The position numbers and the translations under genes are program-made. The notes below the pieces were generated by a model. That model was given only the letters and a program-made list of their open reading frames with translations. It was not told the DNA's origin and did no database searches. A DNA stretch of 61,528 nt, filler included, from Nemertoderma westbladi (Eukaryota > Animalia > Xenacoelomorpha), in assembly GCA_032718475.1 (NCBI GenBank). It is 3 parts of 3 records of this genome, joined end to end, with 100 filler letters (N's around TTAATTAATTAA, not from the genome) between each part and the next. Parts side by side here need not be neighbours in the genome. Positions count along the whole stretch, not along the records: positions 31,361 to 54,309 come from JAUCBJ010003951.1; 2 more parts are not named here. One strand, written 5' to 3'. The stretch's first letter is position 1, and each line of letters starts with the position of its first letter. Below are positions 27,901 to 60,910 of the stretch, in pieces.

Positions 27901-28577
27901 AGTACGGAACTAGTGGGGAGGAGTACGGAACTGGTGGGGAGGAGTACGGAACTAGTGGGGAGGAGTACGGAACTAGTGGGTAGGAGTACGGAACTAGTGG
28001 GTAGGAGTACGGAACTAGTGGGGAGGAGTACGGACTATTGGGGAGGAGTACGGAACTAGTGGGGAGGAGTACGGAACTAGTGGGGAGGAGTACGGACTAG
28101 TGGGGAGGAGTACGGAACTAGTGGGTAGGAGTACGGAAATAGTGGGGAGGAGTACGGAACTAGTGGGGAGGAGTACGGAACTAGTGGGGAGGAGTACGGA
28201 CTATTGGGGAGGAGTACTGAACTAGTGGGTAGGAGTACGGAAATAGTGGGGAGGAGTACGGAACTAGTGGGTAGGAGTACGGAACTAGTGGGGAGGAGTA
28301 CGGAACTAGTGGGTAGGAGTACGGAACTAGTGGGGAGGAGTACGGACTATTGGGGAGGAGTACATAACTAGTGGGGATGAGTACGGAACTAGTGGGGAGG
28401 AGTACGGACTATTGGGGAGGAGTACGAAACTAGTTGGGAGGAGTACATAACTAGTGGGGAGGAGTACGGAACTAGTGGGTAGGAGTACGGAACTAGTGGG
28501 GAGGAGTACGGAACTAGTGGGGAGGAGTACGGAACTAGTGGGGAGGAGTACGGAACTAGTGTGGAGGACTACGGAAA
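18907..28577. repeat. G-rich 21-bp satellite (GGAACTAGTGGGGAGGAGTAC, with a 20-bp variant GGACTATTGGGGAGGAGTAC), about 8 kb, interrupted by a LINE
   Basis: Hundreds of tandem monomers at 18907-20112 and 21834-28577; variant monomers recur in fixed order (higher-order blocks). Confidence 0.98.
20113..21833 (-). mobile_element. 5'-truncated L2-clade LINE with intact RT C-terminal ORF and (TTGA)n tail
   Basis: ORF 20456-21769: QSAYR..HSTET, LLDLSAAFDTVD, GFPQGS, FADD, KTEF, RNLG, SRLDYCNSL, HITPILKRLHWLPV. The 3' end has AATAAA then (TTGA)n at 20113-20141. Confidence 0.93.
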
Positions 28578-31360: not shown

Positions 31361-31657
31361 GAAGGAGTGACTACTGTCCGTGCCTGTCTATTATCAATTG
31401 TCTGGCCGTTATAAGTACCGCACTGCAATACATACTAATACTAGTTACCGGTATCAAAACCTCCACCAGTAGGCCTATCTACCATGGCCTACTTTATACA
31501 CAATATACTAATATACCAACTCCTCTTTTTCGAGATCCAATATTAATAGTATAAGTAAATGGTTAAGTAATCTTCCAGTTTATATAAAATTCATTATGGA
31601 TCTTCCTGAGTTAAAATCTTAGCAGTGTTAAAATATAATCAGAAAATTAAAACATCT

Positions 31658-34600
31658 TCAGCCGAAAGAGTTGTAAGTTAATCTTTCTGGTGGTTTGCAG
31701 ATTCGCCCTGATCGTCGGTTCACTGGAGAATCCATGGAGGGTTGTATGTCTGTTTGTAAGTTTCGGGGTCTAGTGTATGAGTCTGTTGTTGGTCTATTCA
31801 CATCATTAGCAGAACTACTCATTTGGTTGTTGGAACTGGAATCAATATTTAATAATTCGGGTTGTATGGGTCGAAGGTAACATCTGTTTCGCCATAGAAC
31901 GCGTCCTGATGCGAAACGGAGCCTGTATCGTCGATGATTGTCCGTTTCGACTACTAAAGCCAACTTATCCCATCTATGAGAATTTAGATCTCTTACTATA
32001 ACGGTGGAGCCAACTTTTATATTTTTTAATGCAACTGCACTTCGATTATAATAATATCTCCGTTTATCAGCAGTGTTTAAGCGGTTTCTATCAGCAATGT
32101 CTGCATCTTTCTGCCACTCGCTACAATAGGATCTCCAATGAGTTGGGACGAGTGATCGTAAGGGATGACCGAATACTCGTTGCGCTGGGGATAATCCATC
32201 TTCATTTGGAGTATTTCGTAATTCTAGTAGGCCCGCTAGAAAATCATCCGAATTTATATTGCCACCAGTTTTGGCCAACAAATATTTTATCTTTTTCACA
32301 TTCACCTCTGCGTGTCCATTACTTTTTGGATATCCTGGGGTTGATGATTGCCACTTGACTCCCCATTTTCTAAAAAATTGCTGTGTTTCTTCAGCTGCAA
32401 ATTGAGACCCATTGTCTGATGAAAGGATGTTAGGGACTCCCAACATTGCGAAATATTGTCTCAATACCTTTATATTATCAGATGCTGTAGGTGCATTCTT
32501 AAACTTATCAACAAGGGGGTAACCCGAAGTGCGATCAACATATACTATATAGTATGCTCCACCATACTGAAAAAAATCTGCTGACACAGATTGAAAAATT
32601 CGAGCCGGAATGATGTGTTGCAACATTGGTTCAGTTGGAAGGGATGGGCGAAAATGTTGACATTCTAAACAAGTTTCAACAGTATTTGTGATATCAGAAT
32701 TAAATCCAGGCCAGTAAACGCACTGACGTGCCCGTCTCTTAGTTCTTTCTATTCCCTGGTGACTTGCGTGTAACCGCTTCAATATATCTTTTACCCCAGA
32801 TGGTGGAACAACAATTTGAGCACCTTTCAGAATCAAGCCATCATCTATCGACAATTCTCCACAAATCTTTCTGAATTGTTGAACATAGGCACTAAATTCT
32901 GAATCTTTCATTATAAAATCATTGCGTATAGCATCAATCAATAGCAAATAATCACTATCGGATTTCGCACATTCCTTCAATTTATCTAGAGTAATATCTG
33001 GAATATCACCATTTATGGCTGCCTCATTAACTGCATTTAAAAATATAGCAGACTGTTCATATATCAGTTCATCATCTGAGTCATCATTATTGCTATCTGG
33101 ATCTGAAATCGGGGCTCTTGATAAAGCATCTGGTATTAAATGTTCTTTTCCTTTTTTCCATACAACATTGAAGTTATAACTGGACAATTTAGAACGGTAA
33201 TTTAATACCCTGGTATTCTCTATATCAATCAGACCATATCGGTTGAACATTGTTTCTAGGGGTTTGTGATCTGTTATTACAGTGAATGATTCTAATCCTG
33301 CTAAATAAACATGACATTTTCGAATCGACCATAAGATTGCCAAGGCTTCCAATTCAACTATAGCATATCTGGTTTCAGCTTCTTTTAAAAATCTGCTTCC
33401 GCACTGTATAAGTTTCCAATATCCTGATTGTTTTTGCAATAAAACAAAACCAATGCCATGTAAGCGAGAAACGTCCGTTTGCAAACAGGTCTCTGCATTC
33501 GGGTCAAACATTCCAAGAACAGGGGGTCTTAGTAAAGCAGCTTTGACTTTTTTGAAAGACTGGTTATGTTCTGGTAACCATATGAATTCGTTTCTCGAAC
33601 TTAATAATCCACGAAGGGGACTAGCTGCAGATGCAACTTCCGAACTAAAAGAACCCAATTGGTTCACGAGACCTAGGAAGCTTCGGAGGTCAGTCCGAGT
33701 GGTAGGTATTGGAAAGTCTGAAATGGCATTCACTTTGTTGGGGTCTGCTGATATGTTTCCATGTGATATTTTATATCCAACAAAATCAATCTCTTTGGAT
33801 ATAAGAATAGATTTATTTTTGTTTACAGTAAGATTATAATATGCGCATCTTTCTAGGACATCACAAACGGTGCTCACAAGTTTTCTGATAGTTGGAGACC
33901 CCATAGCAATGTCATCTGTAACTTTCTGAACATTTAATCCTATGAAAGCCTGATCACCACGGTATGAAAAGCTATCGCCTGTTGAAATAAATCCCATAGG
34001 GGAACGTAAAAACTTAAATTTTCCAAATGGTGTGATAAACACAGTTAACTCTTGTGATTTAGTATCAAGCGGCATTTGCCAGTATCCTTTCACTAAGTCA
34101 ATCTTAGCAAAATAGTTGTCTTCTATTGTTAAACCAGATATTGCTTCTTTTGGTGTTTTTGTGTGGTAAGAAGTTCGTAAAACCTGGCAATTTAATTTGG
34201 TTAAGTCTACGCAGAGACGTACATCGCCATTTGGTTTTGGGGCCACAACTAATGGATGACACCAAACAGTTGGAAAATCGCCAACAGGTTCTATAATTTT
34301 TCTTTGAACCATATAATCTAAATTATGTTTGACTTTATCTCTTAAAGCATAAGGGATTTGACGGGCAGTATGAACTGCATATGGTACTGCATTTGGTTTT
34401 AGTGTTATTGTCATTGGGTTTCCAACCTTTTCACCACACATAGGCCTAAGTTCTCTAGCATCATCAAATACAATTGAATAAATGCTGTATATTTTACAGT
34501 TAATTTCATTCAAAAGTTCATGTGATAAATTGCTGGTGTTGTTAGGTAAATTATTCAGCCAATCAGAACGGTTTGGCCAAATATCCGAATTGGGGCATGA

Positions 34601-36478
34601 TGCTTCTTTTATACTGTGCGCTGCTGAATTGCAGTCGTTTTTTGTACATTCATCTATAGCAAGACCAGATGTGGACAATGATGTGGGTGTTATAGTTGAC
34701 ACTGAAACATTATCATTCCCCATAGGTTTTGGAAATATTGAACTTACAATTGTTAACTGTTTGCAAGTCTCTAGAGATAAATACAATCCCTGAACATCGA
34801 AACAAACTACAATAGTTGTACTGGTTGTATGTATCCCGACTGATATAATTGCTTTAAATGTACCAACTTGTTCCAAAATTGTTCGACCAACAGTAAAAAT
34901 GCGACATTTTATCTTGGGACCAAGCACACATTTGTTGACTAATCCACTCTCATTAAACATATCAATACCCATAACTGTAGCACCTGCACCTGTATCAGCC
35001 CAAGCTGTAACACTACATTGAAACTGGGAATCATTCAATGTCAAGTTTACTTCAATTAATGGTTTAACACCAGCAATGGCACCACAAATCGATGTGTTTA
35101 TAAATAAATCATGATTTTCCTCTTCATTCATGTATAGTGAATCTATAAATAAAACTGAATCATCTCCTAATTCATCCTCTTCAAAAGAATCACTTTGATT
35201 GGAGAGGTTGATTGCAGCTAATTTTTGTGATGGACACACAATGGAATAATGTCCCTTGCCATCACAACAAACACATGTTGAATTTAATGCAGGGCACTTA
35301 TTCATTGTCTGATGACCACGTTGACCGCACTGGCCACATCGATCAGTATTAATAAAATCTTTTTTCTTTATTTCCTTAATTCTAGGTTTACTAACTTTGC
35401 GGGATTTGTCATCACTTTGTTTTACATTCCATTTTCTCTTATTATATTCAGTTCTATTTATATTAATAGATGTATCAACACAATGACTTACCTTTCCTAA
35501 GCTTTTAGAAGCTATTCGTGCAGATTCTAATGTAATTATAAATTTTCGTGATGCATTGAAATCTAGTGGCGGATCCTGGGCGATTAGTTTTTCGCGGTCT
35601 TGATCGTTGGATATCGCAAGTATTAATAATGCAGTATGCAACCTATCTGCTGTAACAGTTGATGTACTGGCATACTCTCCCAACTCGATTATTTCGTTAC
35701 ACACAGAAGTATAACTTTGGCTTTCTTTCTGTCTTATTGAAAGCAATGACCGCCAATCCAAATTTGCGTTACGGAGTGAACGAAGATATTCTTGAATATG
35801 AGTATGAATTTCTTCAATATCTAAATCAGTATCTGCAGGGATTGATAGCGTGCGATGAATAATAGTTAAAAATCCTGGGGAGCAACAATCCCAAAAACAT
35901 GCAACTTGTTTGGTCTGGCTTCGCGATTCAAGATCCATTAAGTTATAGTAATTATTCCACAGAGCTCGCCATTCCTTAAACCTTCTAAAATCTGTATCCG
36001 ATTCCAGTGTTACAGGGCGTCGAGCTGTTATTTTAGGTAAGTTATCCTGTAGTTCTCTACCCCGCCACTGTCTTTCATCAGTAGGCCTAATTGAGGATGT
36101 ACTGGAATTGGCCATGGCAGCCGCAATAGCTATTTCACGCGCATTGTGAGCATTGGCCAGAGTTTCAAACTCAGCTAGTTGCTCTTGTGCTTTAAGTAGA
36201 TCTTCCTCGAAATCGTCAATATCTTTGTCCCCATCTGTTGCTACTGCATCTGGGTGACACAAAACGGCCATATCGCTCTCTCTAAAACGGTCAAACTTCT
36301 TCGACCAGTCACTAATCCGTATCGAAATCTGCGTCGGAAATGAACGATCTACTGGTTCAATTGCCTCGTAACTTCCGATCACTGCTAGGCCAGCACGTTG
36401 AGCTTTGGTTACAGCAGATTTAAAACCCCGCCGAGATGCCTTCAAACCAGAAATATCAAGGCCTGCTTTAGTCGTCAT
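31658..36478 (-). CDS. Gypsy gag-pol polyprotein (1606 aa)
   Basis: Two CCHC knuckles (CGQCGQRGHQTMNKC, CVCCDGKGHYSIVC), protease ADTGA, RT (RLCVDL, KIDLVKGYWQ, PMG, VTDD), RNase H (TDVS, ELEAL, TDHKPL, DALSR) and integrase (H..H..C..C, ADFF, SDNG, NGHAE), in PR-RT-RH-IN order. Confidence 0.97.
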   Translation of the reverse strand: MTTKAGLDISGLKASRRGFKSAVTKAQRAGLAVIGSYEAIEPVDRSFPTQISIRISDWSKKFDRFRESDMAVLCHPDAVATDGDKDIDDFEEDLLKAQEQLAEFETLANAHNAREIAIAAAMANSSTSSIRPTDERQWRGRELQDNLPKITARRPVTLESDTDFRRFKEWRALWNNYYNLMDLESRSQTKQVACFWDCCSPGFLTIIHRTLSIPADTDLDIEEIHTHIQEYLRSLRNANLDWRSLLSIRQKESQSYTSVCNEIIELGEYASTSTVTADRLHTALLILAISNDQDREKLIAQDPPLDFNASRKFIITLESARIASKSLGKVSHCVDTSININRTEYNKRKWNVKQSDDKSRKVSKPRIKEIKKKDFINTDRCGQCGQRGHQTMNKCPALNSTCVCCDGKGHYSIVCPSQKLAAINLSNQSDSFEEDELGDDSVLFIDSLYMNEEENHDLFINTSICGAIAGVKPLIEVNLTLNDSQFQCSVTAWADTGAGATVMGIDMFNESGLVNKCVLGPKIKCRIFTVGRTILEQVGTFKAIISVGIHTTSTTIVVCFDVQGLYLSLETCKQLTIVSSIFPKPMGNDNVSVSTITPTSLSTSGLAIDECTKNDCNSAAHSIKEASCPNSDIWPNRSDWLNNLPNNTSNLSHELLNEINCKIYSIYSIVFDDARELRPMCGEKVGNPMTITLKPNAVPYAVHTARQIPYALRDKVKHNLDYMVQRKIIEPVGDFPTVWCHPLVVAPKPNGDVRLCVDLTKLNCQVLRTSYHTKTPKEAISGLTIEDNYFAKIDLVKGYWQMPLDTKSQELTVFITPFGKFKFLRSPMGFISTGDSFSYRGDQAFIGLNVQKVTDDIAMGSPTIRKLVSTVCDVLERCAYYNLTVNKNKSILISKEIDFVGYKISHGNISADPNKVNAISDFPIPTTRTDLRSFLGLVNQLGSFSSEVASAASPLRGLLSSRNEFIWLPEHNQSFKKVKAALLRPPVLGMFDPNAETCLQTDVSRLHGIGFVLLQKQSGYWKLIQCGSRFLKEAETRYAIVELEALAILWSIRKCHVYLAGLESFTVITDHKPLETMFNRYGLIDIENTRVLNYRSKLSSYNFNVVWKKGKEHLIPDALSRAPISDPDSNNDDSDDELIYEQSAIFLNAVNEAAINGDIPDITLDKLKECAKSDSDYLLLIDAIRNDFIMKDSEFSAYVQQFRKICGELSIDDGLILKGAQIVVPPSGVKDILKRLHASHQGIERTKRRARQCVYWPGFNSDITNTVETCLECQHFRPSLPTEPMLQHIIPARIFQSVSADFFQYGGAYYIVYVDRTSGYPLVDKFKNAPTASDNIKVLRQYFAMLGVPNILSSDNGSQFAAEETQQFFRKWGVKWQSSTPGYPKSNGHAEVNVKKIKYLLAKTGGNINSDDFLAGLLELRNTPNEDGLSPAQRVFGHPLRSLVPTHWRSYCSEWQKDADIADRNRLNTADKRRYYYNRSAVALKNIKVGSTVIVRDLNSHRWDKLALVVETDNHRRYRLRFASGRVLWRNRCYLRPIQPELLNIDSSSNNQMSSSANDVNRPTTDSYTRPRNLQTDIQPSMDSPVNRRSGRICKPPERLTYNSFG

Positions 36479-36707
36479 TGTTCAGCTTTCACCTGATAAT
36501 GGTGGACAAGAGCTATCCAGCCCTAGTTGCCTAGCTGATATTTAGTACCGGTATTACACTACCAGTACTTCAGTCAGTCAGTACTTGCAGTCCTGCGCAC
36601 TGCAGGTTCGGTAAGTTGACGCCGTATAGCATAAATAATAGAGTGGTCCTTCTGTCTCACATAAAACTAGAACACACTGTTCATAATATAGTAGTTTTAT
36701 CAGTAAG

Positions 36708-36725
36708 ATCCTACTCGCAGCGCCA
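36708..36725 (-). promoter_or_regulatory. Primer-binding site (tRNA-Ser-like) of the Gypsy element
   Basis: + strand ATCCTACTCGCAGCGCCA looks like a tRNA 3' end with CCA and lies directly next to the LTR. The Ser assignment is from remembered tRNA ends and was not searched. Confidence 0.8.
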
Positions 36726-36894
36726 TGTAATGTATAGAAGGAGTGACTACTGTCCGTGCCTGTCTATTATCAATTGTCTGGCCGTTATAAGTACCGCACT
36801 GCAATACATACTAATACTAGTTACCAGTATCAAAACCTCCACCAGTAGGCCTATCTACCATGGCCTACTTTATACACAATATACTAATATACCA

Positions 36895-37997
36895 CCCATA
36901 GCCCAAACAGTTCGATGGCAACCCCTCTCGCTCTGTCGCTGGCTAGTTCTCCCTGCCCAGAACACACTAGGTAATCAAAGTATCTGTTCGACTCACCTAG
37001 TCGTCTCCTCAACTTCACCTGGTCTATCTCAGCCCCTCCTCTAGCTTCTTTCAGTTGTTCCCGGGTCGCGGCGTAGGCTCGTCGGAGCCGGACGACCCCG
37101 ACGTTCTCGTCGTCGACATCTCCTCTCTCCCTCCGGGTCCGGCGTCGTACCGTCGGCTCCACCGTTGCCGTTCCGGTGGGCCGTTCGTCGCCCTCGGCCT
37201 GTGGCTGGCCGGCGACATCGGCATATCGACCGCCGCCCTGTGTCGACTCGTCTCTCTCCTCTCCCGACTCGTCCTCTCCCTGTAGGCGGCCCCCCTCGTC
37301 TCGGATCGCCGGATGGCCCGTTCTCGATGGGTTCGGCGTTGTGGGTGCATGCTGTCTCGTCGCGGCCTCGCGGATCGTTAGGTCGTCGTCCGGGGTCCGT
37401 GGCGGTGTCGTCTTTCCTTCTCTACTCATCTGTCTGCGTCTGGCAGTTACAGTTCGGCAGGCCTAGAGTTAGGACTGTGACGGGATCCGAGAGGATCCCA
37501 GTTTATCCGGTGTTGGTTGTGTACGCGTCCCCGCCGTACCGTGATGGAAAAGAGTTTGTGTTGCTCCAACGTTATTGTTAATATATGAAATACAGTATAA
37601 ATAGGATGATAGCAGATAGCAGTTAATGATGGTAATGTACCGGTAATATGGTGACGGCGGTGACGGTCCTAACTGTCACCGTACTGCCTGACTGTACTGG
37701 GATAACTGAATGAAAGCTGCATCGACCGGTAATATATATATTGCACAGTTGGCCATATTGCTACTCAGCCGATGCTTCCCCCTGATTGGCTAATATCCCT
37801 GTTGGCACCCTTTGGAGTGTTTCCCTTCACTCCTTGTGTTCTCTCTTGGTTAGGGGTTTGGCCCCTGACCCTCGTTGTGTGTTTCTCCTTCCCACTTTAT
37901 TGGGGTGACACGAGGTTGGGTAATCAACCTCGTGCTCCCAATATTGCTTAATGGCTCACTCTATGGGTTTGTGTTAGCGGAATTGGATAAGCTAACA
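36895..37997 (-). mobile_element. 5' part (LTR 37477-37997 plus gag N-terminus) of a second BEL-family element
   Basis: LTR TGTGACGGGATCC...GCTAACA is homologous to 10988-11574. ORF 36884-37429 (GQPQAEGDERP...LRRAY.AT..QLKEAR...GQGELAS.RARGVA.ELF) matches 9960-10751. Confidence 0.88.
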
Positions 37998-37998
37998 A

Positions 37999-39429
37999 GA
38001 AGCTCAAATCCTTATAACAGATCTCTATTCTAAAACCATTATCCATCCTTCGATGGTTCCCCATTTCGGAGACAAACTCTTCGCCACGGCACAGCCTCAA
38101 CCGGTTGATATCAACCTAAGATCTCAAGATCTTATCGCTGACGCTCCCATGTTGCAACGTCCGCCCATCGAAGCCGCTCGTGTCGATGGTATACTCGTTG
38201 AACCTCCGGACAATAGAGCGGATCTTGTCCGTCGCATGGTACACGATGTTAACATACGCGCTAGACCTTTACCGGACTCGTTTTATGGGATCAAAGATCA
38301 CCCTTATTACGTCAATCTAACACAATATTACATGGTAAAACCGGAAGATCCTACACATAGTCGGAGGTTTCTACCACTCATAAATCCTCTCGATCTTGTC
38401 GAACTCGAACAACTGCGGAAACATCTGGATCAGTTAGTTAAAATAAACTCATTTCGAAAACCATATAATGTTTCCAGAATAGAGAAAGAAACAATTCCTC
38501 CGAATAATCTTGATGGATTCATCAAAACTCGATTAGTACACTGGAATCTTGACATGTTATTCGAGGAGGAAAGAATACAACGATATGGAGATGTGGAAAC
38601 ATATACTACACAATACTTAAAGTATAGAGATCTACCTAATGCTAGCGAATGCGCTACCTTGTGGCATCCAGTGGGAATGACTCTCGAAAACGCCACTAAA
38701 GAGTGGAATGAGACTCTCAATGTTATCGAGATGTATGGAGTTGTCACTTACGATAACGAAGGTAGCGTTCCGGTTGGAGAACTGGGAACTACGCGGATGA
38801 TACACATACGAGGACTCGCTGGTTCTACCCACGTATTTACTCGAGCGTGTTCCGATGTGATTGATTATTCTTTTGAGACTCTTACTGAGACACAAAAGAA
38901 ACTCCGACATGGACAATTCGAACTCGCGCAGCGTTACGTCACCGACACCGAGCGCAAACCGGCCATGGGTATCGATGGATCGATGTTACCCCAGCCCGTG
39001 CTCGAGATGTTGTTTAACGAAAGAATCCTTAAAATCGGCTCAGCTGTTTATGGAGATCTACAAAACGACTTTCGGAATATGGAGAACATTCCATACCCTT
39101 TCGTTGATACTCAGCTGATTGCTCCCTGGGCAGAAGGCCGATGTTTCTTCCGCACTATGTATGCCAATACACCCAGCGGCATTACTAAAGTACAACGAAC
39201 CTCCATCGGACATCTTGCCTTTCAAGAATACGGATGGAATTTCAAGGTTGGAAATCCTATCAATTACCAACAAGTATATGGAGATCATTATTCTCGTTTA
39301 TACTTTGATGGACCATTGACCGCACCTGGCGCCGTGTATAGCTTTATGAGTGTTCCACTTCGTCCCTCCTTAGCTATATACACGATCTTTGAAAACGCCG
39401 CACTTGCCGGTTGGCTAGCCACCAGATGA
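37999..39429 (+). CDS. Putative DEDDy (WRN/MUT-7/EXD-like) 3'-5' exonuclease-domain protein, N-terminal part; frame open up to the LTR edge (first ATG 38053)
   Basis: VVTYDNEG (ExoI DxE), LPQPVLEMLFNERILKIGSAVYGD (ExoII), FVDTQ, SIGHLAFQEYG..FK and PLT....VYSFMS (ExoIII-like, with Asp replaced by Ser). Confidence 0.72.
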   Translation, partial: EAQILITDLYSKTIIHPSMVPHFGDKLFATAQPQPVDINLRSQDLIADAPMLQRPPIEAARVDGILVEPPDNRADLVRRMVHDVNIRARPLPDSFYGIKDHPYYVNLTQYYMVKPEDPTHSRRFLPLINPLDLVELEQLRKHLDQLVKINSFRKPYNVSRIEKETIPPNNLDGFIKTRLVHWNLDMLFEEERIQRYGDVETYTTQYLKYRDLPNASECATLWHPVGMTLENATKEWNETLNVIEMYGVVTYDNEGSVPVGELGTTRMIHIRGLAGSTHVFTRACSDVIDYSFETLTETQKKLRHGQFELAQRYVTDTERKPAMGIDGSMLPQPVLEMLFNERILKIGSAVYGDLQNDFRNMENIPYPFVDTQLIAPWAEGRCFFRTMYANTPSGITKVQRTSIGHLAFQEYGWNFKVGNPINYQQVYGDHYSRLYFDGPLTAPGAVYSFMSVPLRPSLAIYTIFENAALAGWLATR

Positions 39430-40795
39430 ACACAATAAATTCATCTGCTTCGAATGTTTCAGGCGCTTTCTGACTCCGTTCCGTAACGTTGATAGTCAGT
39501 TCAAGGACCGCGCTCTGACCAAACTCAGCCTAAGAGACTCAGCTGCGGAGAAGCTAAACAGCGCGGGATTTGCCCTTTTCCAGGACGTTTGTATACAGAA
39601 CTTACATTCATCTGTTATACAAAGACCCCGAATACCCACGGGTTATTCTGTCGTGGAAGTTCAGACAGTGGGTCCGCTTGCGGAGACAGCCGCACCTACC
39701 TCAGCTATGCAATTGGAAGACGAACCAATATGCTTAGAATCTGAGGCGATTCAGCCTACAGCGCCCCGGAGCAGCGATAACGACTACGTCTTAGAGTGGT
39801 ATCAAGGTCCACAATGTCTCACCGCATACGATTATCGACACGCCAACTATGTTTCTCGAAAACGTTGTCGATTATGCGCATCGAGAGACCATTTCACCCC
39901 TATGGACTCAGACGTACCCTGCTCCTATTTCCACGAACAACCGATGATGGAGATCTATTGTGCGTATTGCAGACTTAATAACTCGCACATTTTTGAAGTC
40001 TGCCCCCAATTTATGACTCAATGCCACCACTGTCAACTTAAAGGACATGCCAGTTATAATTGCCCCTTTAATCGCGAATTAGAAAGCGTAGATGAGATGA
40101 TTACCCTGCGATACATCCGAGCTTGGGAAGCGAACGCGGATTTACATTGTGAGTCCCGCCATCGCTATTACCCTGGACGCTCTTACGAGGGAGTTTACGC
40201 GTTCCATCCTTATTTATTCGCGTCTGTGGAACAAAAAACACGCACACCGAGTTACGAACTAATGAAGCATGTTGGTGAGTGTATTTCCACCAAATTTGTT
40301 CGAAAATATCTCAGGAACGTCAATCCTAATGATATTACTTCATACCATTTGATCAATTTCATCCGTCAAGACCCTGAGTATGGCGATTTATTTATCAACT
40401 CGCACCCTGAGTTACAGGAAGTATCTCGACGGCCCTACGAATATCGAGCCCGAGAACGCGAGCTGGAAAGAACCATTAAACCGAGGAGGTTTCTCACCAC
40501 TCACGGTCCACCTACCGCTATTGTCCAGACGACCCGTCAAGGACCCGTAGGAGCTGCTGTCCTAAGACGCGCCCTAAAGGCCGTTAGACCTCGCTCCACT
40601 GAAGTTGATATCGATCAACCAGGTACCTCGACCGGCGGATACACCGATCGTAATCCTAAACCTTCTGATGCAATTGTATTGCACCCTTCACCCAGGAGTT
40701 ACAGCCCTCCTAGTAAAGTGGCTCGCCCCAAAGAGAAAAGGACTCTTGCTAGCCTCAAAAAACTGCGTAAACGCCGTCCGCGTAAGAAAGACTAA
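39419..40795 (+). CDS. Triple CCHC zinc-knuckle protein with basic C-terminus; probably the C-terminal half of the exonuclease gene (frameshift at about 39419-39429)
   Basis: CRLCASRDH...C, CAYCRLNNSHIFEVC, CHHCQLKGHASYNC and KKLRKRRPRKK. The frame is open from 39419, overlapping the upstream ORF stop, and the linker is conserved in the paralogue at about 12720-12890. Confidence 0.75.
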   Translation, partial: PPDEHNKFICFECFRRFLTPFRNVDSQFKDRALTKLSLRDSAAEKLNSAGFALFQDVCIQNLHSSVIQRPRIPTGYSVVEVQTVGPLAETAAPTSAMQLEDEPICLESEAIQPTAPRSSDNDYVLEWYQGPQCLTAYDYRHANYVSRKRCRLCASRDHFTPMDSDVPCSYFHEQPMMEIYCAYCRLNNSHIFEVCPQFMTQCHHCQLKGHASYNCPFNRELESVDEMITLRYIRAWEANADLHCESRHRYYPGRSYEGVYAFHPYLFASVEQKTRTPSYELMKHVGECISTKFVRKYLRNVNPNDITSYHLINFIRQDPEYGDLFINSHPELQEVSRRPYEYRARERELERTIKPRRFLTTHGPPTAIVQTTRQGPVGAAVLRRALKAVRPRSTEVDIDQPGTSTGGYTDRNPKPSDAIVLHPSPRSYSPPSKVARPKEKRTLASLKKLRKRRPRKKD

Positions 40796-42289
40796 CTGTT
40801 TAGAGTATTTTTATATTTTAGAAACTGTGATTTTTATATTTTATAGACTAAAATCCCATTTTCTGGGAGCGGTGTAAAAGCTTTTGCGGAATTAGCCGGT
40901 TATTTTCCCCATAAAGTACTCTGTAGTTGGTTTAACAGGCATAAAAGGCCGTATCCTTACTGTACTGGTGTTTTAGTGGACATAAAAAGCCATTTCTTCT
41001 GTATGTGTACTTTAGCGGACATAATTAGCAATTGTATGACGCAATGCGCTAGATCCTCTTGAAACAGTGTAGTTACTATGACGACAGCTAACAGCTGAGC
41101 TGTACACGTGTAGTTATTTCCTTGTTCTCTGGTGTTTCTTTGTTCGGTCAACCAATCAGAGCGATTCTCTTGCTTTTTGTACAGAAACCTCCGAGAAATC
41201 GCGCAATGCATTATGGGTCAATGTTTACATTTTGTCCTGAGCCTAGAAGACCGGCTTTGGAATCTCTGTGTTTTTCAGTCTTTAGCCCAACATTAGTAGG
41301 CTTAATTATAGAACGTATATCTGTTATCATTACTCACAAACCAAATTTACATTTTACCACAATTCATAACTAATCAAACACCACATTTTTACTGCTATTT
41401 ACTGTCGGTTATTCATTATATCAGTTGATGGAATATTATTATATTGGATAATATCGATAAATTAATCATAAACCCTCAATCTTCTTGATATACTGAAGGT
41501 AAGAGAGACCGGTTACATATAACGATTGCGACTTACATTAAAGTGGTTTTGAAGTGAATCTAATGCTATTTCATAGGCACTACATGTATTGGTTGTTGTT
41601 CTCTTTATATGTGACTAAAATTAGTGAAGGTCGGCAGATCAGTGTGCAGCATTGTGCAGTATTGTGTATGATTGTGACTGATAACAAAGCATCTCCTAAA
41701 GAATGCGCCATATACGTGAATCCATAGCCATCCCGTTGTGTCTAGTTTAAGTCATAACTCTGTTTACATATGTAGAGCGCCACGTCCTAAAGGAACTGTT
41801 AATATTTCCCGAAAGTGAATAATATTTGTCAGAGATTATATATATTACGATCAGTCGAATAATACAGTAGGCATACACCGCAATAAGATTAAGCTTCCGA
41901 ATCCAGTCTCCCGAGTATATCCAACGGGTGAATGGTCGCGCATAGACTGGCTTCGGCTAATGTAGTGTATCAAATACTCGTCATAGGCTAAAGTCGATTT
42001 ATTATCTAGAAGACATCCCAATTTGGCAGGTTAAACTGCTAAAGGTCTGAAAGCGCGAACAAAGCTTTTGACCGAATTTCATGTGTTAAACTGTTAGCAA
42101 AACTACTTACACTGGGTTGCGGCAGCCATATTGTAAATACGTATTATCTCTAACTACAATCGGACTGCTGCATTGCAGCTGCACATGAGAAGCTATGCTG
42201 TCTTAAAAAAAATATTTTGACACTACCATTCAATCGACAATTGGCAAACCCAATGCAGCATGCATTAAGAATGATATGCCAGCTTATCA

Positions 42290-43190: not shown

Positions 43191-43910
43191 ACTCCTCCTT
43201 TAACGAAGCCCCATTCAACTCCTTTTATAAGACTGTGTACTCTATCAATGCCTCAGTGGGTTGATTCCAGTACTGCAAGGCTCAGCGCCGGGTAAGTTAA
43301 CAATCTGTCAATAATAAAAATGAAAGCGAGCCGACATTTAGTCAGATCCACCAAATGGATGGCCAAGGAGACAGACTGTCTGGATTGAGCTGATTCGAGT
43401 TAAATCGCTTCGCCAAAACGACCAAGTAGCCCATAGGAATACACTACATTTTTTTTGGTGATTTTGGTCATTTTGGCCGCCAAAACGACCAAGTTAATGT
43501 TTATTGGGATTGGGACTGTATTTATCTATAGGACTACATTACATTGAGCGATTTCACATACAGACATCTGGACATACCGTATGCATAGGCGTAGTCGAAT
43601 ACTGTTTCCTGATTGGTCCAGACTGCCAGATGAGATAGAGAGAAAAGTCATGCATGTTTTTGAGATATTGCAGGGTAAATAGGGTATAACTTTTGCGTAG
43701 AGGTATAGCCTACATAGAGGCTACATGTAGGTATGTGTAGCCTACATGTAGATGCACGTGTAGGGTGAATGTAGGTAGGTGTAGGTAGGTCTTTAAAAAC
43801 AACAATGATGAATGAATAGGCCTACACGGGGTACCCGGACCCGAACTTCCTCGATGAGATGCGAATGCGGCGAACGGGGGTGGTATCCGGAACAACCATG
43901 AAGAGATGTA

Positions 43911-44753
43911 CGGTGGCTGAATTGTGCCACTTAATACTTTTTTTTATTATTTTTTTTTGAAGCGACTTTTTGGTCGACCAAAAAGTACTTTTTGGTCGAC
44001 CAATAAGTCGACTTTTTGGTCGACCAAAAAGTAGTTTTTGGTCGACCAAAAAGTACTTTTTGGTCGACCAAAAAGTCGACTTATTGGTCGACCAAAAAGT
44101 CGACTTATTGGTCGACCAAAAAGTACTTTTTGGTCGACCAAAAAGTCTGGAAGTATTATCCAATAGAAAACATACAACTATTTTCGAGGCAAAATCAAAT
44201 TACATTAAGTGAATTAGGTGGTTATTTAAAACCGTAACACTATCATGATGAAGGATTAATATCCTAGGTACCGGTAGGCCTAGCGATCAATGTGTTTAAC
44301 AAAGCTTTATGTACACCGGTACAGTAATTTGATTTTACCTCCAAAATAGTTATATATATGTTTTCTATTGGATAATACTTCCAGACTTTTTGGTCGACCA
44401 AAAAGTACTTTTTGGTCGACTAAAAAGTCGACTTTTTGGTCGACCAAAAAGTAGTTTTTGGTCGACCAAAAAGTACTTATTGGTCGACCAAAAAGTCGAC
44501 TTTTTGGTCGACCAAAAAGTAGTTTTTGGTCGACCAAAAAGTACTTATTGGTCGACCAAAAAGTCGACTTTTTGGTCGACCAAAAAGTACTTTTTGGTCA
44601 ACCAAAAAGTACTTATTGGTCGACCAAAAACTACTTTTTGGTCGAACAAAAAGTCGACTTATTGGTCGACCAAAAAGTATTTTTTGGTCGACCAAAAAGT
44701 CGCTTCAAAAAAAATAATAAAAAAAAGTATTAAGTGGCACAATTCAGCCACCG
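43911..44753. mobile_element. Foldback-type MITE with TA TSD and arms built from palindromic modules
   Basis: TA|CGGTGGCTGAATTGTGCCACTTAATAC ... GTATTAAGTGGCACAATTCAGCCACCG|TA. Arms contain arrays of TTTTTGGTCGACCAAAAA alternating with AGTACT/AGTCGACT; inner arm homology extends to about 44205 / 44325. Confidence 0.92.
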
Positions 44754-46314
44754 TAGAGATGCGCATATGGCGGGCGGTGGTACCCGAAACAACCAGGAGA
44801 TGCGAATACGTCGAATGGAGGTCCCCTGAATACCCACGAGACGGAGCCTATCAATACTACAGTACTGACAAAGGAAAAAACGACTGAACGATATACCGGA
44901 TACATACTGTAGATCTTATGATCCTGCGGGTTCGGGCATGGAGGCTAATGACTTTGTATGGGCCGAACGGCCCGAACCTTATGTTTCCAGTCAAGGAGGA
45001 ATCGACTAACGGTTCGGGTTAGAGCTCGTCGTCGGTGTCCATGAGGGTCTGAGGATGAGTGGGTAATTCAACAAAACGCTAACAATGATACCGGACTGAC
45101 TGATTGAACCAGAGTGGCGATGGTAGTCGCTGATGTATATATATTATATATATCATGTATTGATTGTTAGTAAATATTTTTTATAGTATTTGTTTATTAA
45201 ATTGTCTTCAATGTCTATATTGATAATATTGTGTGCTGTGCTGATTTTACTTATTTTTCACTTTATAAATCTTGCTGTGGCCGTTTTAATCTACTAAACT
45301 GCCGTATCAATTTCATGATATTTTAATGGATATGCAATTTAACTTCTTCTTTCTATTAACTTTCAATGCAATCAAATATAACTGTAAAGCTATTGACTTT
45401 CGTGTTATTGTTTTGCTGTTACTTCGAGATGGGATTTGAATCCCATCGGATTACTGATTAATTCCCATCATCGAGATGGGAATACTTTATAATGAAACAG
45501 TGTGGTGGTCCGCGGGATAGTGGGAAGGGATGGGAATGTTGCTGGTTGGACCAACCAGCAACATTGTGATTCCATCTATAGGGCAAATTTTTAAAGTGTA
45601 TATTTTACTTTCTCCAGCCTTCATGTACGTTCCACTTGGTAAAAAAAAATATATAAATAAAAAAAAATTAAAAAATAATAATTTTGTGAACTTGCTCAAT
45701 CTCCTAAAAGTTTCCAGAATTTCTAGAATATACCGCATAATGTTCAAAAGCGTGGATTTTAGTTGTTTGGCATTTTATCACATAACGTCATTATGTTTTA
45801 CAGTTATAGGATGTTTTACATAATGATGGTACCATTTAATACCATTCTGCTAAGTAGGGCATGTACGCCGAAAGCATTTAGCGCACAATTTTTTCAGATA
45901 CACAATACAGATTTACAATACAGATAAGAGATAGGGCCTACCGGTAATAAGCCTCCTGCCAGCCTGCTCCTACTTGGTGTGCTTAGGCCAGTTGCCAGTA
46001 GGCAGGCAGGTAGGTGGTAGGAGATTTCGCGCAGTATTTCTGCTGCGCGTGCCAATCTCGTGCAGTTTTTCTGCTGCGCACGCGGATTTTGCACTGTTTT
46101 TGACTGGCACGCGCACTTTTTTTTCTGCGCCGTGTCGCGTTCGGCGCACCAAAAAAATCACTTAGCAGAAGGGATTTAATATAGGTTAACTCTGATGTCT
46201 GCAGTCTGTAGTTTTCACAGTTGGCTTGTAACGTAATTCATTGTACTGCAGTATTATCCATATATAAATTATATATATAAAGTTACTGTTAAATTTTTAT
46301 CTTTACCACTACTT

Positions 46315-48594
46315 ATGGCTAAACCATACAGGGTCAGGGATCCACGAGGAATATGGCTTATAGGTGATACCAGATCACACTTTAATGCATCTAAACTTCC
46401 TTCTCGAGGTGAATTGCTTGCTGTTCTTTTTCACTTCCGCAATAACGAAAAAAGAAGTCTTAAAGAAAGTATAGAAGAAACAGCGACACTTTTAATACCA
46501 ATCTGGGAAAGAGCAAGAATTCCGACTATAGCTAATAACCATGTTATAGAACACATTCGTAAGTTCCACGGAGAATGGCAAGGACTAAAGAAGAATATCA
46601 ACCGCCAATCAGCTTCTAATATAGCTAAACAGGAAGATTTCAAACTCAGTTTATCTGATCTATTTGATATCGCCCACCGGGATGCAATGCAATTAATCAA
46701 GATTGAAGAGGATCGTTTGTTTTTATTATCACAACGAAAAAAGGGACGGAGTGGTGCAATGATTGGCGTCGATAAAACTCTCTCCAACCAAGAGGATCGT
46801 GCTACACGACGTAGTATTGCTGAATCTCGAAGATGTGATAAAAGTGAAGCTTCTACTTCAGCTATGCAGGAAGTAGTAATACTTGACTCTTCAACTGATA
46901 CATCAGGCAGTGATTTAGATGAGCTCTATTCGAAAAGACCAAAAAAGACTACGCCTTCAAGGTCAAGGGGGGTAGTACCTGTGATAACTAAGGATATATC
47001 TGCTGCTTTGGACCGAACAAAGACAACCGATCGACAAGCAGCACATATTTTGACTTCTGTTGCTTCATCCGGAATTATCCAAGAGCCAACCGTGAAACTT
47101 ATAATTAGTTACAGTGCTATTCGGCGAGCAAGAATGAAACATCGTGAGAAGTTTGCAAAGGAAATTCGCTGTTCGTTTAAACCAGACGTCCCTTTAATAC
47201 TCCACTGGGATGGTAAGATTCTTCCAGATCATACTGGAACTGCTCGTGGAAACGTAGACCGCCTACCAATCCTAGTTTCAGGCCATGATGTGGTAAAGCT
47301 ACTTGCAGTACCAAAACTACAGTCTGGCACAGGATCTGCAATGGCTGAAGCATGTGTGTCTGAACTAGCTCTGTGGGGACTAACTGATAAAATTGTAGGC
47401 ATGTGTTTTGATACCACAGGATCAAACACTGGTGGCAATAAGGGTGCTTGTCTCTTGATTGAAAATGAACTAGGTAAAGACCTACTCAATCTAGCATGCC
47501 GTCATCACATTTCTGAAGTTGTCCTGGAAAAGGTATTTTCTATTAACGATGTCTCAAAGTCTCCAAATATTGAATTGTTTGAACGTTTTCAGGAATACTG
47601 GCCAAGGATCGATCAAAGTGCTTACTGTACAGTAAAGGACACTCCAAATCTAGGCATCGATGTTGAACCTCTTAAAGATGATATTATAAGTTTCGCTTTA
47701 GATCAGCTATCTCAACACCAGCCACGTGATGAATACAGGGAACTGTTGGAACTGACAATAATATTCTTTGGAAATGTTCCTCCAAATGGAGTGCGATTTA
47801 GGTATCCAGGAGCAGTTGCTAGGTCACGGTGGATGAATAGGGCGATATATGTACTCAAAATGTGGCTCTTTAGGAAGGAGTATCCACTCACAGGACGTTC
47901 AAGTTCAAGAGGTCAATCATATGGAGACAAGATATGGGAGCACATTCAGGATGTATCCTTGTTTGTAGTATTAGTATATGTTCCTTATTGGTACAAAACT
48001 CCATCTGCAATCCAGGCACCAAGAAACGATCTATACTTTCTACAGGCCTTGTTAGTGTATCCAAATAAGACAATATCAGAAGCGGCTGTGACATCCTTTT
48101 CTAGACACTTATGGTATCTTTCTGAAATGCTCGTCGGTATTAGCCTGTTTGATGAGTCGGTTCCTGATAGTGAGAAGCGTGATATGGTAAAAAATATGAA
48201 GGAAATAGATGGGTCAGAACATGCCATTAAGAGGATTGCTCCTATTGTCGATCCGAACTCAAAAACTCTCTCAAGTTTTTTCACTAAGTCAACTCTAAAA
48301 CTCTTTAAGATTTTAAACCTTAATGTCAACTTCCTGTCAGATAAAGACCCTAGCCTTTGGAGATCAGATGACGACTACAAACACGCTAAAGTCATTGTTT
48401 CATCCCTAAATGTTATCAACGACATGGCTGAAAGGGCAGTTGCTCTAATCAAAGAGTTCAATGATGCCATTACCCGAAATGAAGAGCAAAAACAATTTTT
48501 GCTTCAAGTTGTTGAGGCTCATCGGCAGTTATTTCCTGTTCCATCGAAAGCCACATCAATAGGATGTAAGACCTCACAGCAGGATGACCTATAA
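46315..48594 (+). CDS. DDE transposase, hAT superfamily (hATm-like), intact 759 aa
   Basis: LHWDGKIL, VDRLPILVS, KLLAVPKL..GTG, GMCFDTT.SNTG...GAC, LACRHHI.E, RDEYRELLEL, RWM.RAIY.LK and VINDMAERAVALI. Probable right terminus ...GCATCACCCTT at about 49276; subterminal direct repeat at about 48807/49006; left terminus unresolved. Confidence 0.85.
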   Translation: MAKPYRVRDPRGIWLIGDTRSHFNASKLPSRGELLAVLFHFRNNEKRSLKESIEETATLLIPIWERARIPTIANNHVIEHIRKFHGEWQGLKKNINRQSASNIAKQEDFKLSLSDLFDIAHRDAMQLIKIEEDRLFLLSQRKKGRSGAMIGVDKTLSNQEDRATRRSIAESRRCDKSEASTSAMQEVVILDSSTDTSGSDLDELYSKRPKKTTPSRSRGVVPVITKDISAALDRTKTTDRQAAHILTSVASSGIIQEPTVKLIISYSAIRRARMKHREKFAKEIRCSFKPDVPLILHWDGKILPDHTGTARGNVDRLPILVSGHDVVKLLAVPKLQSGTGSAMAEACVSELALWGLTDKIVGMCFDTTGSNTGGNKGACLLIENELGKDLLNLACRHHISEVVLEKVFSINDVSKSPNIELFERFQEYWPRIDQSAYCTVKDTPNLGIDVEPLKDDIISFALDQLSQHQPRDEYRELLELTIIFFGNVPPNGVRFRYPGAVARSRWMNRAIYVLKMWLFRKEYPLTGRSSSRGQSYGDKIWEHIQDVSLFVVLVYVPYWYKTPSAIQAPRNDLYFLQALLVYPNKTISEAAVTSFSRHLWYLSEMLVGISLFDESVPDSEKRDMVKNMKEIDGSEHAIKRIAPIVDPNSKTLSSFFTKSTLKLFKILNLNVNFLSDKDPSLWRSDDDYKHAKVIVSSLNVINDMAERAVALIKEFNDAITRNEEQKQFLLQVVEAHRQLFPVPSKATSIGCKTSQQDDL

Positions 48595-50521
48595 GAGCCG
48601 TCACCAATTTATTTAATTAAACTCAAACTTTATGGTTTGATCTCCTGTTTTACTCCTCTAATAATTTGAACTCTACCTGTCACTAATAATACCGAATATT
48701 TTGGTAATTGGTTTTGCTACATATTAATATATATACTGTACAATTTATATTAATGGAAATTCGAATTGTACAAATAATTGATTTTCATGTAACATTGCAA
48801 ACAATTCGATTCGTGAGATGATTTTTCAGTCTAACTGTTGAGAGATTATCGAATTTCACTCAGCCAAGCCAGTTACTAGATAAAGCCATTTGAAGCCAAA
48901 AATGACTTCCGCTCCAGTGAAAACATGCCGCTTCGAGTATTAACTAGCGAGTTATTGACTAAATGCTATTGGTTTACATTGAACATGGCAGCATGGCATG
49001 CCAATCGATTTGTGAGATGATTCTGTGTCTAACTGTAAATAAATTATCGAATTTCATTAAAATATGACCCATTGAAGCCAAAAAACTACTATCGCAATGG
49101 TTGCGATTGCTAAAAATCGTCGGCGTATAGGGGTAAAATTTACTTAGTGCTTGAGCAAGTCCTAAAACTCAATATTTTTTGATGAAATTTTTCCTGTGAG
49201 ATTTTTTTGTCCATTGGAACACATTGGTAGGTTGGTCATCAACTGATTCCAAAACTTCAATTTTAGCATCACCCTTTGGTTGGTGGAATGTGACTGCCTG
49301 AAAAATTAAAACAAACAAAACTTCCAGACTTCTATATTTTTACTTTCAAAACAAAACGTCCAAAACATTTCAATGCTGAAGTACTGTTCAAGTCCCATGG
49401 ATGTATGGTTGATAAACAGATAAAGAGGGGCAGAGGGGGGTCAGGGTTTCTGGTAGACTATAGTCCCCGCGATGATGGCTGTTCTTCTTTAGGTTACTCT
49501 TACTCAATAAACATATAAATCAGAACGAGTTAATCTAATGGAACGATGCCTTTCGTGGCGTTAGCATACTCAAATTTATTAGGGCATAATATTTATGACG
49601 ATGAGTAAGGGACTTTAGTATAATCAGAACGCGATGTTTGATATTTATACAGTACTGCAGTACGGTATGCAGTAAAACCTGTTGTCTGACAGCAGACAGG
49701 TCTGCAGGTTGATGTACCGTATTGTACCGTGGAGATCAGAGATTATTGCCATACATCCTGATTGACGACCGTGTATCACGTTACTGCAAGTTGACACATA
49801 AATTACATTAATATCTATGGGACTACTACACCTACCTACATTCACCCTACACGTGCATCTACATGTAGGCTACACATACCTACATGAAGCCTCTATGTAG
49901 GCTATACCTCTACGCAAAAGATATACCCGGGTAAATACTGAAATATAACACATCCCCCTCTCTGAAACTAACGCTACTAACTAAAAGAGCTAACTTACTT
50001 AACTACTGTAATAACTAACTTAGCAGTGGGTGCCAAATTTTGGTGCCAGCCCCAAATTTTGAAATATTTCAATCTTGTAAATTTAATATTTGAAGCTGTT
50101 TTTTCCGCAATAGGGCAGTCTGGCAGTAGGGGTTTTAGGAGTTCTAGTCTTGTTGGAATATATGAATTGCACAAGGCATGTTGGCACGTTGTATTTTTCG
50201 GTGCTTTGGTCTTTGGTTAGAAATTTCCGCCGCTGTAATAACCTGCTATTTTCCTTCAATTGGAAGGTTACAACATCGTTTATTGATTCCCACCTTCCTT
50301 AATCGTCTGGGTATAAACTCCGCCGTATCAGCTGGCAAACAGGGCAATGAATTATTTAATTATCATCCAAACATTCGGATAAATAAGATGAAATATGCAT
50401 GTTGAATATACTGTTGGTAGCGCACAAACTAGGTAGGTTGTTAAGAGGTGGTTTACTAAATTATTAAAATAAATAAAGTTATTAAAATTATTATTATTAT
50501 TGCATATTATTATTAAAAGAA

Positions 50522-53410: not shown

Positions 53411-54160
53411 TCAATCCATTGTGGGGTCGTTAGCGCCAGGACCAGCTCGAATTTCCGGGTCGATATTAACCTCGACTCCGCTAGCTCGATCATTATCCCT
53501 GACCCGTGGTTTCAATCCAAGAGAGGTTCGTTCCGCGTTTGTGAGCGCGTAGTTCCGGATGAGAACCCCGTTCTGCCAGTTCTCGGGGTTCATAAGACGA
53601 TCCCTGTCGTCCTGTTTGCATGTCAGATGGAACGCGATTGTACCCGACGCCGGCGTATCGTTCCCGGACTCACCCAGCGGGATCAGCCGCGGGACCGGTA
53701 CGACATCCTGGAATGGTAGGCCTTCTCTCTCCAAGTATTGTTTAATGTGGTTTTCGTTGACGGAACGTTTGAATCTGCCGATATAGATGTGGGCTAGTTG
53801 GGGACTAGTTGGTGCGTTTACCGTTGGAGGACTTACATCGAGACCAGTTCCCGACTTCGTCCCGATCCGCTGGGGTTCGCGATGTTTAGGTCCGCCCATC
53901 GTCCAACCGTCGTTGCCTGGACGGAGCAGGCGAGTGCGAACAACCATCGACGCATATGAAGTACCGGTAGTCGGCGCGCCGGGCACGCGGGCAGTAGGCT
54001 CCTGGGCCTGGCCCCGGGTGTTTGAATGACTGCTAGGTTGGTGCGTATTATCAGCCATTGGCGTATTTGCTGTCATGGTAACAAGTTTGTCCTTCGAGTC
54101 TATTAATTCTCGTTGCACATCGGTCAGTTTACCCAACGCAATGGTGTAGAGAGCATTCAT
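53411..54160 (-). CDS. LINE ORF1 (coiled-coil start, RRM-like C-terminal region)
   Basis: SYASMV, HIYIGRF....E..IKQYL...AFHL.......LMNPENWQNGVLIRNY resembles the CR1/L2-group ORF1 C-terminal motif. Confidence 0.8.
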   Translation of the reverse strand: MNALYTIALGKLTDVQRELIDSKDKLVTMTANTPMADNTHQPSSHSNTRGQAQEPTARVPGAPTTGTSYASMVVRTRLLRPGNDGWTMGGPKHREPQRIGTKSGTGLDVSPPTVNAPTSPQLAHIYIGRFKRSVNENHIKQYLEREGLPFQDVVPVPRLIPLGESGNDTPASGTIAFHLTCKQDDRDRLMNPENWQNGVLIRNYALTNAERTSLGLKPRVRDNDRASGVEVNIDPEIRAGPGANDPTMD

Positions 54161-54309
54161 CGCAAGTAGGTTGTCTGTTAGTGTTTGTTCATCATTGGCG
54201 TTTACACCTCTTTTTGATTTAATGTTCCTTATCAGACAGTCAGAGATAAGACCTCGCTTTGTAAGCGGAGAAACTCATCCGCCATTGTACAGTTATATAA
54301 TATATATAA

Positions 54310-60592: not shown

Positions 60593-60910
60593 GTTGGTAT
60601 TCCAGCTACATAATATTATCCACTATGTTTGTCCTTGTATCTTTCAGTAGGTGGATCCAATATTCCAAATTCTGCAACACAATGACGGGAATAGATATTA
60701 TTATTATTATATATTCAACAAGTCACATGACTATTTTTGCACAGATACACAAACAAATTAACCAGTTACATGAATACTTACATAAAAAACAAATATAATA
60801 AAACAATAATACATATAATAAATACAATAAATAATACAAAATAACAAACAAAATATTTGTAATTATTCCCTGAGTAATACTGAGTCTACTGAGGAACTGC
60901 CTATCTACAG

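Follow-up and report, generated by a model that had tools for sequence, protein, structure and literature searches.

Introduction

DEDDy 3′ to 5′ exonucleases have been met before as passengers of mobile elements. In bdelloid rotifers, the long terminal repeat (LTR) elements Juno and Vesta, as well as the Athena/Terminon elements, carry DEDDy-type third open reading frames (ORF3s), whose motif is DEED and whose activity is untested (Rodriguez, Kenefick, Arkhipova 2017, PMC5408684). Other sources report DEDDy ORFs in Terminons (PMC6431247), describe a DEDDy exonuclease together with a CCHC motif in the Dada DNA transposons of Laccaria and Ectocarpus (PMC3706591), and list DnaQ-like domains among the known LTR accessory domains (PMC6338049). 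Among cellular proteins, an exonuclease with tandem CCHC knuckles has a solved structure, that of Trypanosoma brucei RNase D (TbRND; PDB 7C42; Gao et al., PMC7797062). In TbRND the knuckles bind the U-tail of guide RNA and all four contribute to cleavage, for which the DEDD site uses two cations; the ExoIII Asp is a metal ligand (PMC7797062). Here we describe a repeated gene of the animal Nemertoderma westbladi that is predicted to join a remote DEDDy exonuclease domain to zinc knuckle-like motifs, and consider which element carries it. The window, that is, the whole stretch of DNA analysed, comprises 61,528 nucleotides (nt) of assembly GCA_032718475.1; the gene lies in the part from record JAUCBJ010003951.1.

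Results

Two ORFs and a remote exonuclease domain

The gene is present as two ORFs that overlap by 11 nt with a +1 offset. The longest ORF found in 500 shuffles of the region encodes 220 amino acids (aa), so the lengths of ORF1 and ORF2 are far beyond chance. Both frames lie where the original prediction had put them, as do the motifs DxE (38752–38760), LP..VLEMLFNERILKIG..VYGD, FVD and SIGHLA of ORF1 and the basic tail of ORF2; no intron was seen in the gene, which had been called intronless. The features of the gene and of its second copy in the window are:

37996–39429, plus strand: ORF1 (product P0001, 477 aa), an N-terminal region of ~235 aa without a family match followed by a predicted DEDDy-type exonuclease domain; the 5′ end abuts an inserted LTR and the 3′ end lies at the break between the ORFs
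38752–38760, plus strand: ExoI, D253-x-E255, the DxE of the pair profile aligned to the DxE of RNase D
39034–39114, plus strand: ExoII region (K-x-G...D354) with FVDTQ, the best-matching part (TIGR01388, E 0.009; 8.7 bits)
39379–39393, plus strand: putative ExoIII equivalent, Y462-x-x-x-E466, from global hhalign, with Glu in place of the RNase D Asp and the same Glu in P0003
39419–40795, plus strand: ORF2 (product P0002, 458 aa), a linker, three knuckle-like motifs, a conserved post-knuckle segment and a basic tail
39420–39424, plus strand: break between the ORFs, likely a deletion scar; contigs of other copies hold extra sequence here
39866–40063, plus strand: three Cys/His knuckle-like motifs, C150–C168 (long spacing), C181–C195, and C202–C215 (canonical)
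40757–40792, plus strand: Lys/Arg-rich tail resembling a nuclear localization signal, present in copy 2 too
11669–12999, minus strand: copy 2, a decayed relative (tblastn E 1e-35), 5′-truncated, with a larger internal deletion and many stops and frameshifts

By its profile matches, ORF1 is predicted to encode a remote DEDDy exonuclease of the RNase D/PF01612 type, a fold assigned from profiles alone. In the Atlas feature search, P0001 residues 225–477 gave PF01612 clusters at a score of 0.91 (25 of 30 matches), the chance rate for this score being 4–10%. NCBIfam RNase D models match residues 333–376 at E 0.009 (TIGR01388, rnd) and 0.028. A hidden Markov model (HMM) of 11 bacterial RNase D/PolA exonuclease domains scores P0001 at 8.7 bits and its relative P0003, described below, at 9.4 bits, values reached by 0 of 300 shuffles each. 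When P0003 and P0001 were combined into a pair profile and compared with the same 11 domains, hhalign returned a probability of 90.9 with E 1.1e-6, against 8.9 for the best of 100 column shuffles and 0.26 for the reversed profile; the alignment puts DxE and ExoII in register with RNase D. These four lines of evidence agree, yet they are not mutually independent. The ExoII Asp (D354) and the following D-T motif (FVDTQ) are present in P0001, and the putative active site would consist of D253, E255, D354 and Y462/E466; residues were not assigned from the MAFFT alignments A1 and A2, which misplace ExoI and the knuckles.

Several results weigh against this assignment. The Atlas shared-feature count of 157 falls below the 170 typical of true family members, and the NCBIfam rnd score is 15 bits against a curated cut-off of 299. 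The isolated ExoI segment was equalled by 618 of 2000 shuffles and the ExoIII segment by 110 of 2000. Neither P0001 nor P0003 matched any Pfam exonuclease family, including PF01612, and the sequence search of the PDB gave no exonuclease. ExoIII reads YxxxE, not YxxxD, in both proteins, and the domain may therefore be weak or inactive, given that the Asp of TbRND at the place of this fourth acid is a metal ligand. AlphaFold2 models speak neither for nor against the fold, having pLDDT values (the program's predicted local confidence) of 30.4 with a single sequence and 31.1 with a two-row alignment, too low for fold comparison. Of the DEDDy exonuclease originally proposed, D253, E255, D354 and the remote homology to RNase D stand, while the fourth catalytic acid is Glu instead of Asp.

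Zinc knuckles and a relative with a single ORF

Three knuckle-like motifs were found in P0002, as predicted, with the spacings C-x2-C-x4-H-x9-C, C-x2-C-x5-H-x4-C and C-x2-C-x4-H-x4-C; only the third is canonical, so that the description as three CCHC knuckles has to be narrowed (canonical spacing in 1/3 of the motifs of P0002 and 2/3 of those of P0003). The match to zf-CCHC_3 has E 0.0018, and all zf-CCHC matches are under the curated cut-off.

The sole match among 1.84 billion representatives (E 4e-4) is P0003, a protein of 648 aa encoded by one ORF on a 9.4-kb ENA contig. In this ORF a long low-complexity linker joins the exonuclease motifs to three knuckles, and its product matches both P0001 and P0002. 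The similarity in the knuckle region exceeds that of all 1000 shuffles, and P0001 and P0003 are only ~31% identical. The presence of both parts in the single ORF of P0003, together with the profile evidence, supports the view that exonuclease and knuckles form one protein, as had been proposed. No recognisable orthologues were found in 5.8 billion proteins by a word-based search within length bands, scans of metagenome contigs and of viral contigs gave no related locus, and tblastn against plasmids gave chance-level matches only, one of them being RNase D at E 9. The family is real, remote, and poorly represented in databases.

Many diverged copies and the break between the ORFs

Copy 2 is 33–46% identical to P0002 and 50% identical to P0001 over 30 residues. 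Parts of the stretch occur in 5 of 7 sequencing runs; four of these belong to one organism (A), and the fifth, which contributes a small share, belongs to another (B). Contig records matching 37300–41700 at 80–100% likeness number 19,152 in X1, 6,918 in X3, 405 in X4 and 106 in X5; these counts show many diverged copies and are not a copy number, and dispersal is seen from the two copies in the window. X5, which may be an RNA run, leaves 37300–37740 and 41122–41268 uncovered, gaps on which no conclusion here is based. The gene thus exists in many diverged copies, and its prediction as multicopy holds both for the decayed copy 2 and for the thousands of diverged contig pieces. Of the listed substitutions among copies, 29/39 in ORF1 and 11/15 in ORF2 are synonymous, where a share of 23% (all changes) or 33–34% (transitions) is expected; they come from the 40 rows with the best support out of 377 and the 40 such rows out of 1076, a non-random selection that tells against leaning on them. 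None of the 7 indels listed lies within 37998–39560, all being in the LTR, and the indels shown (12 of 91) are all 3′ of the stop.

The two frames had been thought to be joined by one frameshift into a protein of about 930 codons. The contigs of other copies speak otherwise. After position 39420, two X4 contigs and one X5 contig, the latter with at least 255 further letters, depart from the window sequence, and at 39424 three X4 contigs enter it from other sequence. Because other copies hold different sequence at the points where their contigs leave and join, the junction is most likely a deletion in this copy and not a frameshift; a family-wide programmed +1 frameshift was rejected as the main reading on the same divergence. 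The missing part is inferred, from the single ORF of P0003, to keep one ORF, whereas the copy described here is most likely no longer functional. At 37997 the inserted LTR adjoins the 5′ end of ORF1, and an X4 contig that matches 37999–38211 continues with 517 nt upstream of 37999 that are unlike the window. As the 5′ end of the gene is cut by this inserted BEL/Pao LTR, 930 codons is likely a lower bound for the size of the protein.

Flanks and the carrier element

The LTRs and LTR-like features that adjoin the two copies are:

37476–37997, minus strand: BEL/Pao-like LTR Z, 522 nt, inserted at the 5′ end of ORF1 (score 157 against the Y LTR, shuffles at most 30)
40865–40917, plus strand: purine-rich tract, TG at 40873 and 11-mer, candidate start of the element's own 3′ LTR
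40873–41768, plus strand: candidate 3′ LTR W, repeated in reads, with an uncertain right end (41537 or 41768)
10988–11574, minus strand: BEL/Pao LTR Y5, which begins 94 nt after the stop of copy 2 in the same orientation

Z is an insertion, since two X4 contigs run on from its edge with a C-run (the purine tract on the strand of Z) and the gene-side contig runs upstream into other sequence. The same two kinds of contig rule out Z as the gene's own LTR, with the ORF antisense. The true 5′ context of the gene is hidden by this insertion, the upstream sequence being displaced by element Z, a Gypsy insertion and a gap of N's. One X1 contig joins the edge of the Z LTR to 38617, which would represent a deletion or else a second Z-type insertion, in another copy of the gene; this element may be a preferred target of BEL elements.

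On the 3′ side, the candidate LTR start lies 77 nt past the ORF2 stop, and in both window copies 77–94 nt separate the stop from an LTR or LTR-like sequence that begins with TG. The X4 and X5 contigs stay in agreement as far as 40883–40886 and diverge beyond, and the repeat runs past 41700. The starts of W and Y5 have an exact 11-mer in common, and these 2 matches are the only ones in the window (0.02 expected). A position shortly ahead of an LTR or LTR-like sequence is the one usual for an ORF3, and on this ground the gene is probably cargo of an LTR retrotransposon, an accessory ORF3 situated just before the 3′ LTR; whether the carrier belongs to the BEL/Pao clade we put at an even chance. 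A DUF1759 gag and a DUF5641 domain are present in the adjacent element Y, though on the other side of the LTR from copy 2.

A number of observations count against an LTR carrier of this kind. The shared 11-mer was picked after the alignment had been seen. Over its whole length W is only weakly like BEL LTRs, scoring 87 with Y5 (compared with 58 +/- 7), 60 with Y3 (54 +/- 7) and 49 with Z (45 +/- 6). The purine tract before 40873 is short, and there is none before Y5 at copy 2. Taken by themselves, the two 3′ untranslated regions show no significant likeness (87 of 1000 shuffles). In the window neither gag nor pol was found linked to the gene, and no LTR pair or target site duplication (TSD) bounds an element there, a second copy of W being absent from it. 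Ahead of its own 3′ LTR, element Y has another ORF, which is unrelated to this gene. Nor, on the other side, did termini of other kinds of element come to light: the gene ends show no poly(A), tandem 3′ repeat or terminal inverted repeat (TIR), and there is no Rfam match in the window. Comparing the flanks of copies, as had been proposed, thus yielded an LTR or LTR-like start behind both window copies (2/2) and neither an LTR pair, nor a TSD, nor a TIR.

Neighbourhood

The window consists of animal-type DNA dense in transposable elements, with Gypsy, fragments of long interspersed elements (LINEs), BEL/Pao remnants, a TIR element, satellites and two transporter genes, in agreement with the reported embedding of the gene among transposons. 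Element Y (3493–11574, minus strand) is a non-autonomous BEL/Pao element with a long gag region and pol deleted between gag and DUF5641. Its LTRs are only 82% identical and no TSD was seen, which fits a recombinant or old insertion. By eye, no TGG primer-binding site was seen after the LTR, and a short inverted repeat is there instead, in Y and in Z. Between DUF5641 and the 3′ LTR, element Y has an open frame of 121 aa without a Pfam match (4833–5198, minus strand), which may be what is left of a further accessory ORF. An intronless ORF of 702 aa for a sodium:neurotransmitter symporter (13709–15817, minus strand; SNF, E 4e-78) lies some 700 nt upstream of copy 2.

A young Gypsy element with a single ORF of 1607 aa (31361–36894, minus strand) sits within the gag of BEL element Z; its LTRs are 99.4% identical over 158 nt, the 3′ LTR being cut by the N gap. 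The DNA transposon at 43682–49928 has TIRs of 103 nt (98%), a 9-nt direct repeat on both flanks, an internal inverted repeat (43909–44144 / 44523–44755) made of 22-nt units, and an intact ORF of 785 aa (46237–48594) without a Pfam family match, whose WDGK, FDTT and CRHH motifs we take to be hATm-like. A 21-nt satellite (18907–28576; 58 and 323 copies) is split by a LINE reverse transcriptase (RT) fragment at 20456–22105 and bordered by AT-rich dispersed repeats. The near-intact non-LTR retrotransposon at 50522–54274 (minus strand) has ORF1 and an APE-RT ORF2 parted by a stop codon only, and is cut by an N gap. At 58890–60640 (plus strand) lies an MFS transporter gene, apparently with introns.

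Discussion

The reading that we favour, by a modest degree, is that the gene is a broken copy of an accessory third ORF whose product would grip single-stranded RNA with its knuckles and trim the 3′ end with its exonuclease, eroding the small silencing RNAs of the host. An LTR retrotransposon would carry the gene as ORF3 before its 3′ LTR. The knuckles would hold single-stranded RNA and feed its 3′ end to the exonuclease, where a two-metal site of D253, E255, D354 and E466 would trim it. By analogy with TbRND, such feeding of RNA 3′ ends to a two-metal site seems somewhat better than an even bet. The substrates could be host guides of the Piwi-interacting RNA (piRNA) type or uridylated RNA ends, met in or near the nucleus in view of the basic tail, and the element would benefit from the erosion of host small silencing RNAs or of their tails. 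Host small silencing RNAs or tailed RNA ends are the likeliest single target, yet with a probability well below one half; no result here bears on the RNA target or separates the readings of it, which weighs against this part of the proposal. A stronger form, in which a BEL/Pao lineage in animals carries a TbRND-like D-E-D-E exoribonuclease that destroys or trims piRNA guides, with distant relatives such as P0003 in other genomes, appears rather unlikely.

Alternatively, the exonuclease could serve the replication of the element itself: it would trim single-stranded cDNA, or else the genomic or subgenomic RNA, at the 3′ end, while the knuckles would bind the element's RNA in the manner of a nucleocapsid. 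The best PDB match of the P0003 knuckles is indeed a retroviral nucleocapsid (E 1e-4), 3′-end processing of element RNA has been proposed for the bdelloid DEDDy ORF3s (PMC5408684), and the candidate LTR is preceded by a purine tract of less than typical length. However, short CCHC knuckles match nucleocapsid and AIR2 all alike, and the neighbouring Gypsy has its RT, RNase H and integrase in one open ORF with no such gene found there, which leaves a role in the element's own replication a minority possibility of about one in four. A little less probable is a dead or weak nuclease fold carried by the element as an RNA-binding decoy or adaptor, like EXD1 and Maelstrom (PMC5408684). The change of the ExoIII Asp to Glu in P0001 and P0003 would suit a decoy, and so would the trace activity that is all TbRND retains after D230A at that residue (PMC7797062). 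On the other hand, two proteins that have diverged so far both retain the Tyr and an acidic residue at each of the four positions, and bdelloid ORF3s vary the motif too.

The carrier might also be of another type, such as a Penelope/Terminon-like element, a non-LTR element or a DNA transposon, or the gene might be a free cassette whose 3′ flank is a hotspot for BEL insertion. BEL LTRs adjoin both window copies, Z as a clear insertion; the X1 contig joining the Z edge to 38617 is perhaps an independent insertion; copy 2 is 5′-truncated; and DEDDy ORFs occur in Terminons (PMC6431247) and in Dada transposons (PMC3706591). Against such a carrier stand the gene ends, where neither poly(A) nor a TIR, tandem 3′ repeat or Rfam match was found, and the similarly short distance to an LTR-like start in two diverged copies. 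We regard it as improbable, to the same degree as the decoy. Least probable of all, with a chance well below that of any other, is a host family of a small-RNA pathway (MUT-7/EXD-like) grown by duplication or retroposition. The mostly synonymous listed changes among copies, the occurrence of this architecture in a host protein, the cellular TbRND, and the intronless host-type genes nearby, such as the SNF transporter, would agree with a host family. It is opposed by very many diverged copies, internal deletions, 5′ truncation and nested insertions of transposable elements, and by the want of recognisable orthologues in the 5.8 billion proteins (word-based, length-limited). The proposal of mobile-element cargo in place of an ordinary host gene therefore gains support from the many diverged copies and from the LTR-like 3′ context.

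Taken as a whole, the original observation survives for the ORFs, their motifs and their repetition and is revised for the frameshift, the canonical knuckles and the fourth Asp. Its interpretation keeps the fusion of exonuclease with knuckles and the status of cargo, and loses the frameshift and the implied lack of precedent, seeing that DEDDy ORF3s have been published for bdelloids (PMC5408684) and an exonuclease with CCHC knuckles for TbRND (PMC7797062). The locus would extend exonuclease-carrying retroelements beyond bdelloid rotifers, in a form with its own RNA-binding module. If the targets are host small RNAs, an animal retrotransposon would encode an enzymatic counter-defence; if they are not, the gene would add another accessory ORF to a pattern that is already known and apparently recurs. 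Within the accessible papers, which take in few subscription titles and neither Repbase nor the primary Terminon paper (Mol Biol Evol 2017), nothing was found that describes such an exonuclease–knuckle fusion in a mobile element of an animal, or an exonuclease ORF within BEL/Pao; Terminons may yet have a knuckle-bearing DEDDy ORF.

Comparison with known systems

Exonucleases of the WRN-exo, MUT-7 (Nibbler), EXD1 and Egalitarian group have the PF01612-type fold class that is predicted here, and the K-x-G before the ExoII Asp resembles that of WRN/MUT-7. The sequence search of the PDB gave no match to their solved structures, and the members of this group are single-copy host genes that are not known to have knuckles.

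The bdelloid ORF3s are alike in being RNase D-like DEDDy ORFs on retroelements with an altered acidic motif, and their position before the 3′ LTR is inferred to be similar (PMC5408684). They differ in having DEED and only a Cys-His-Cys motif, no tandem CCHC knuckles being described (PMC5408684), whereas the gene here has D-E-D-E, three knuckle-like motifs, a long N-terminal region and a basic tail, and lies beside BEL/Pao LTRs; the two are set apart by the published description, not by direct sequence comparison. In the Dada transposons the exonuclease is inside a DDE transposase (PMC3706591), whereas the ORF here is without a transposase.

TbRND likewise has a DEDD exonuclease followed by tandem CCHC knuckles that aid RNA cleavage, and acts on small guide RNAs (PMC7797062). 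It is a mitochondrial cellular protein with four knuckles, a 28-residue linker and the full DEDD, in contrast to three knuckles, a linker of >150 residues (~270 in P0003), an ExoIII Glu and many copies here. The sequences match in the knuckles only, at a non-significant E of 3, and not at all when single sequences are used; what they appear to share is architecture, not orthology. Nevertheless, TbRND is, by analogy, the best working model for the gene, and the knuckles together with a solved analogue make its function testable, namely which RNA ends are bound and trimmed.

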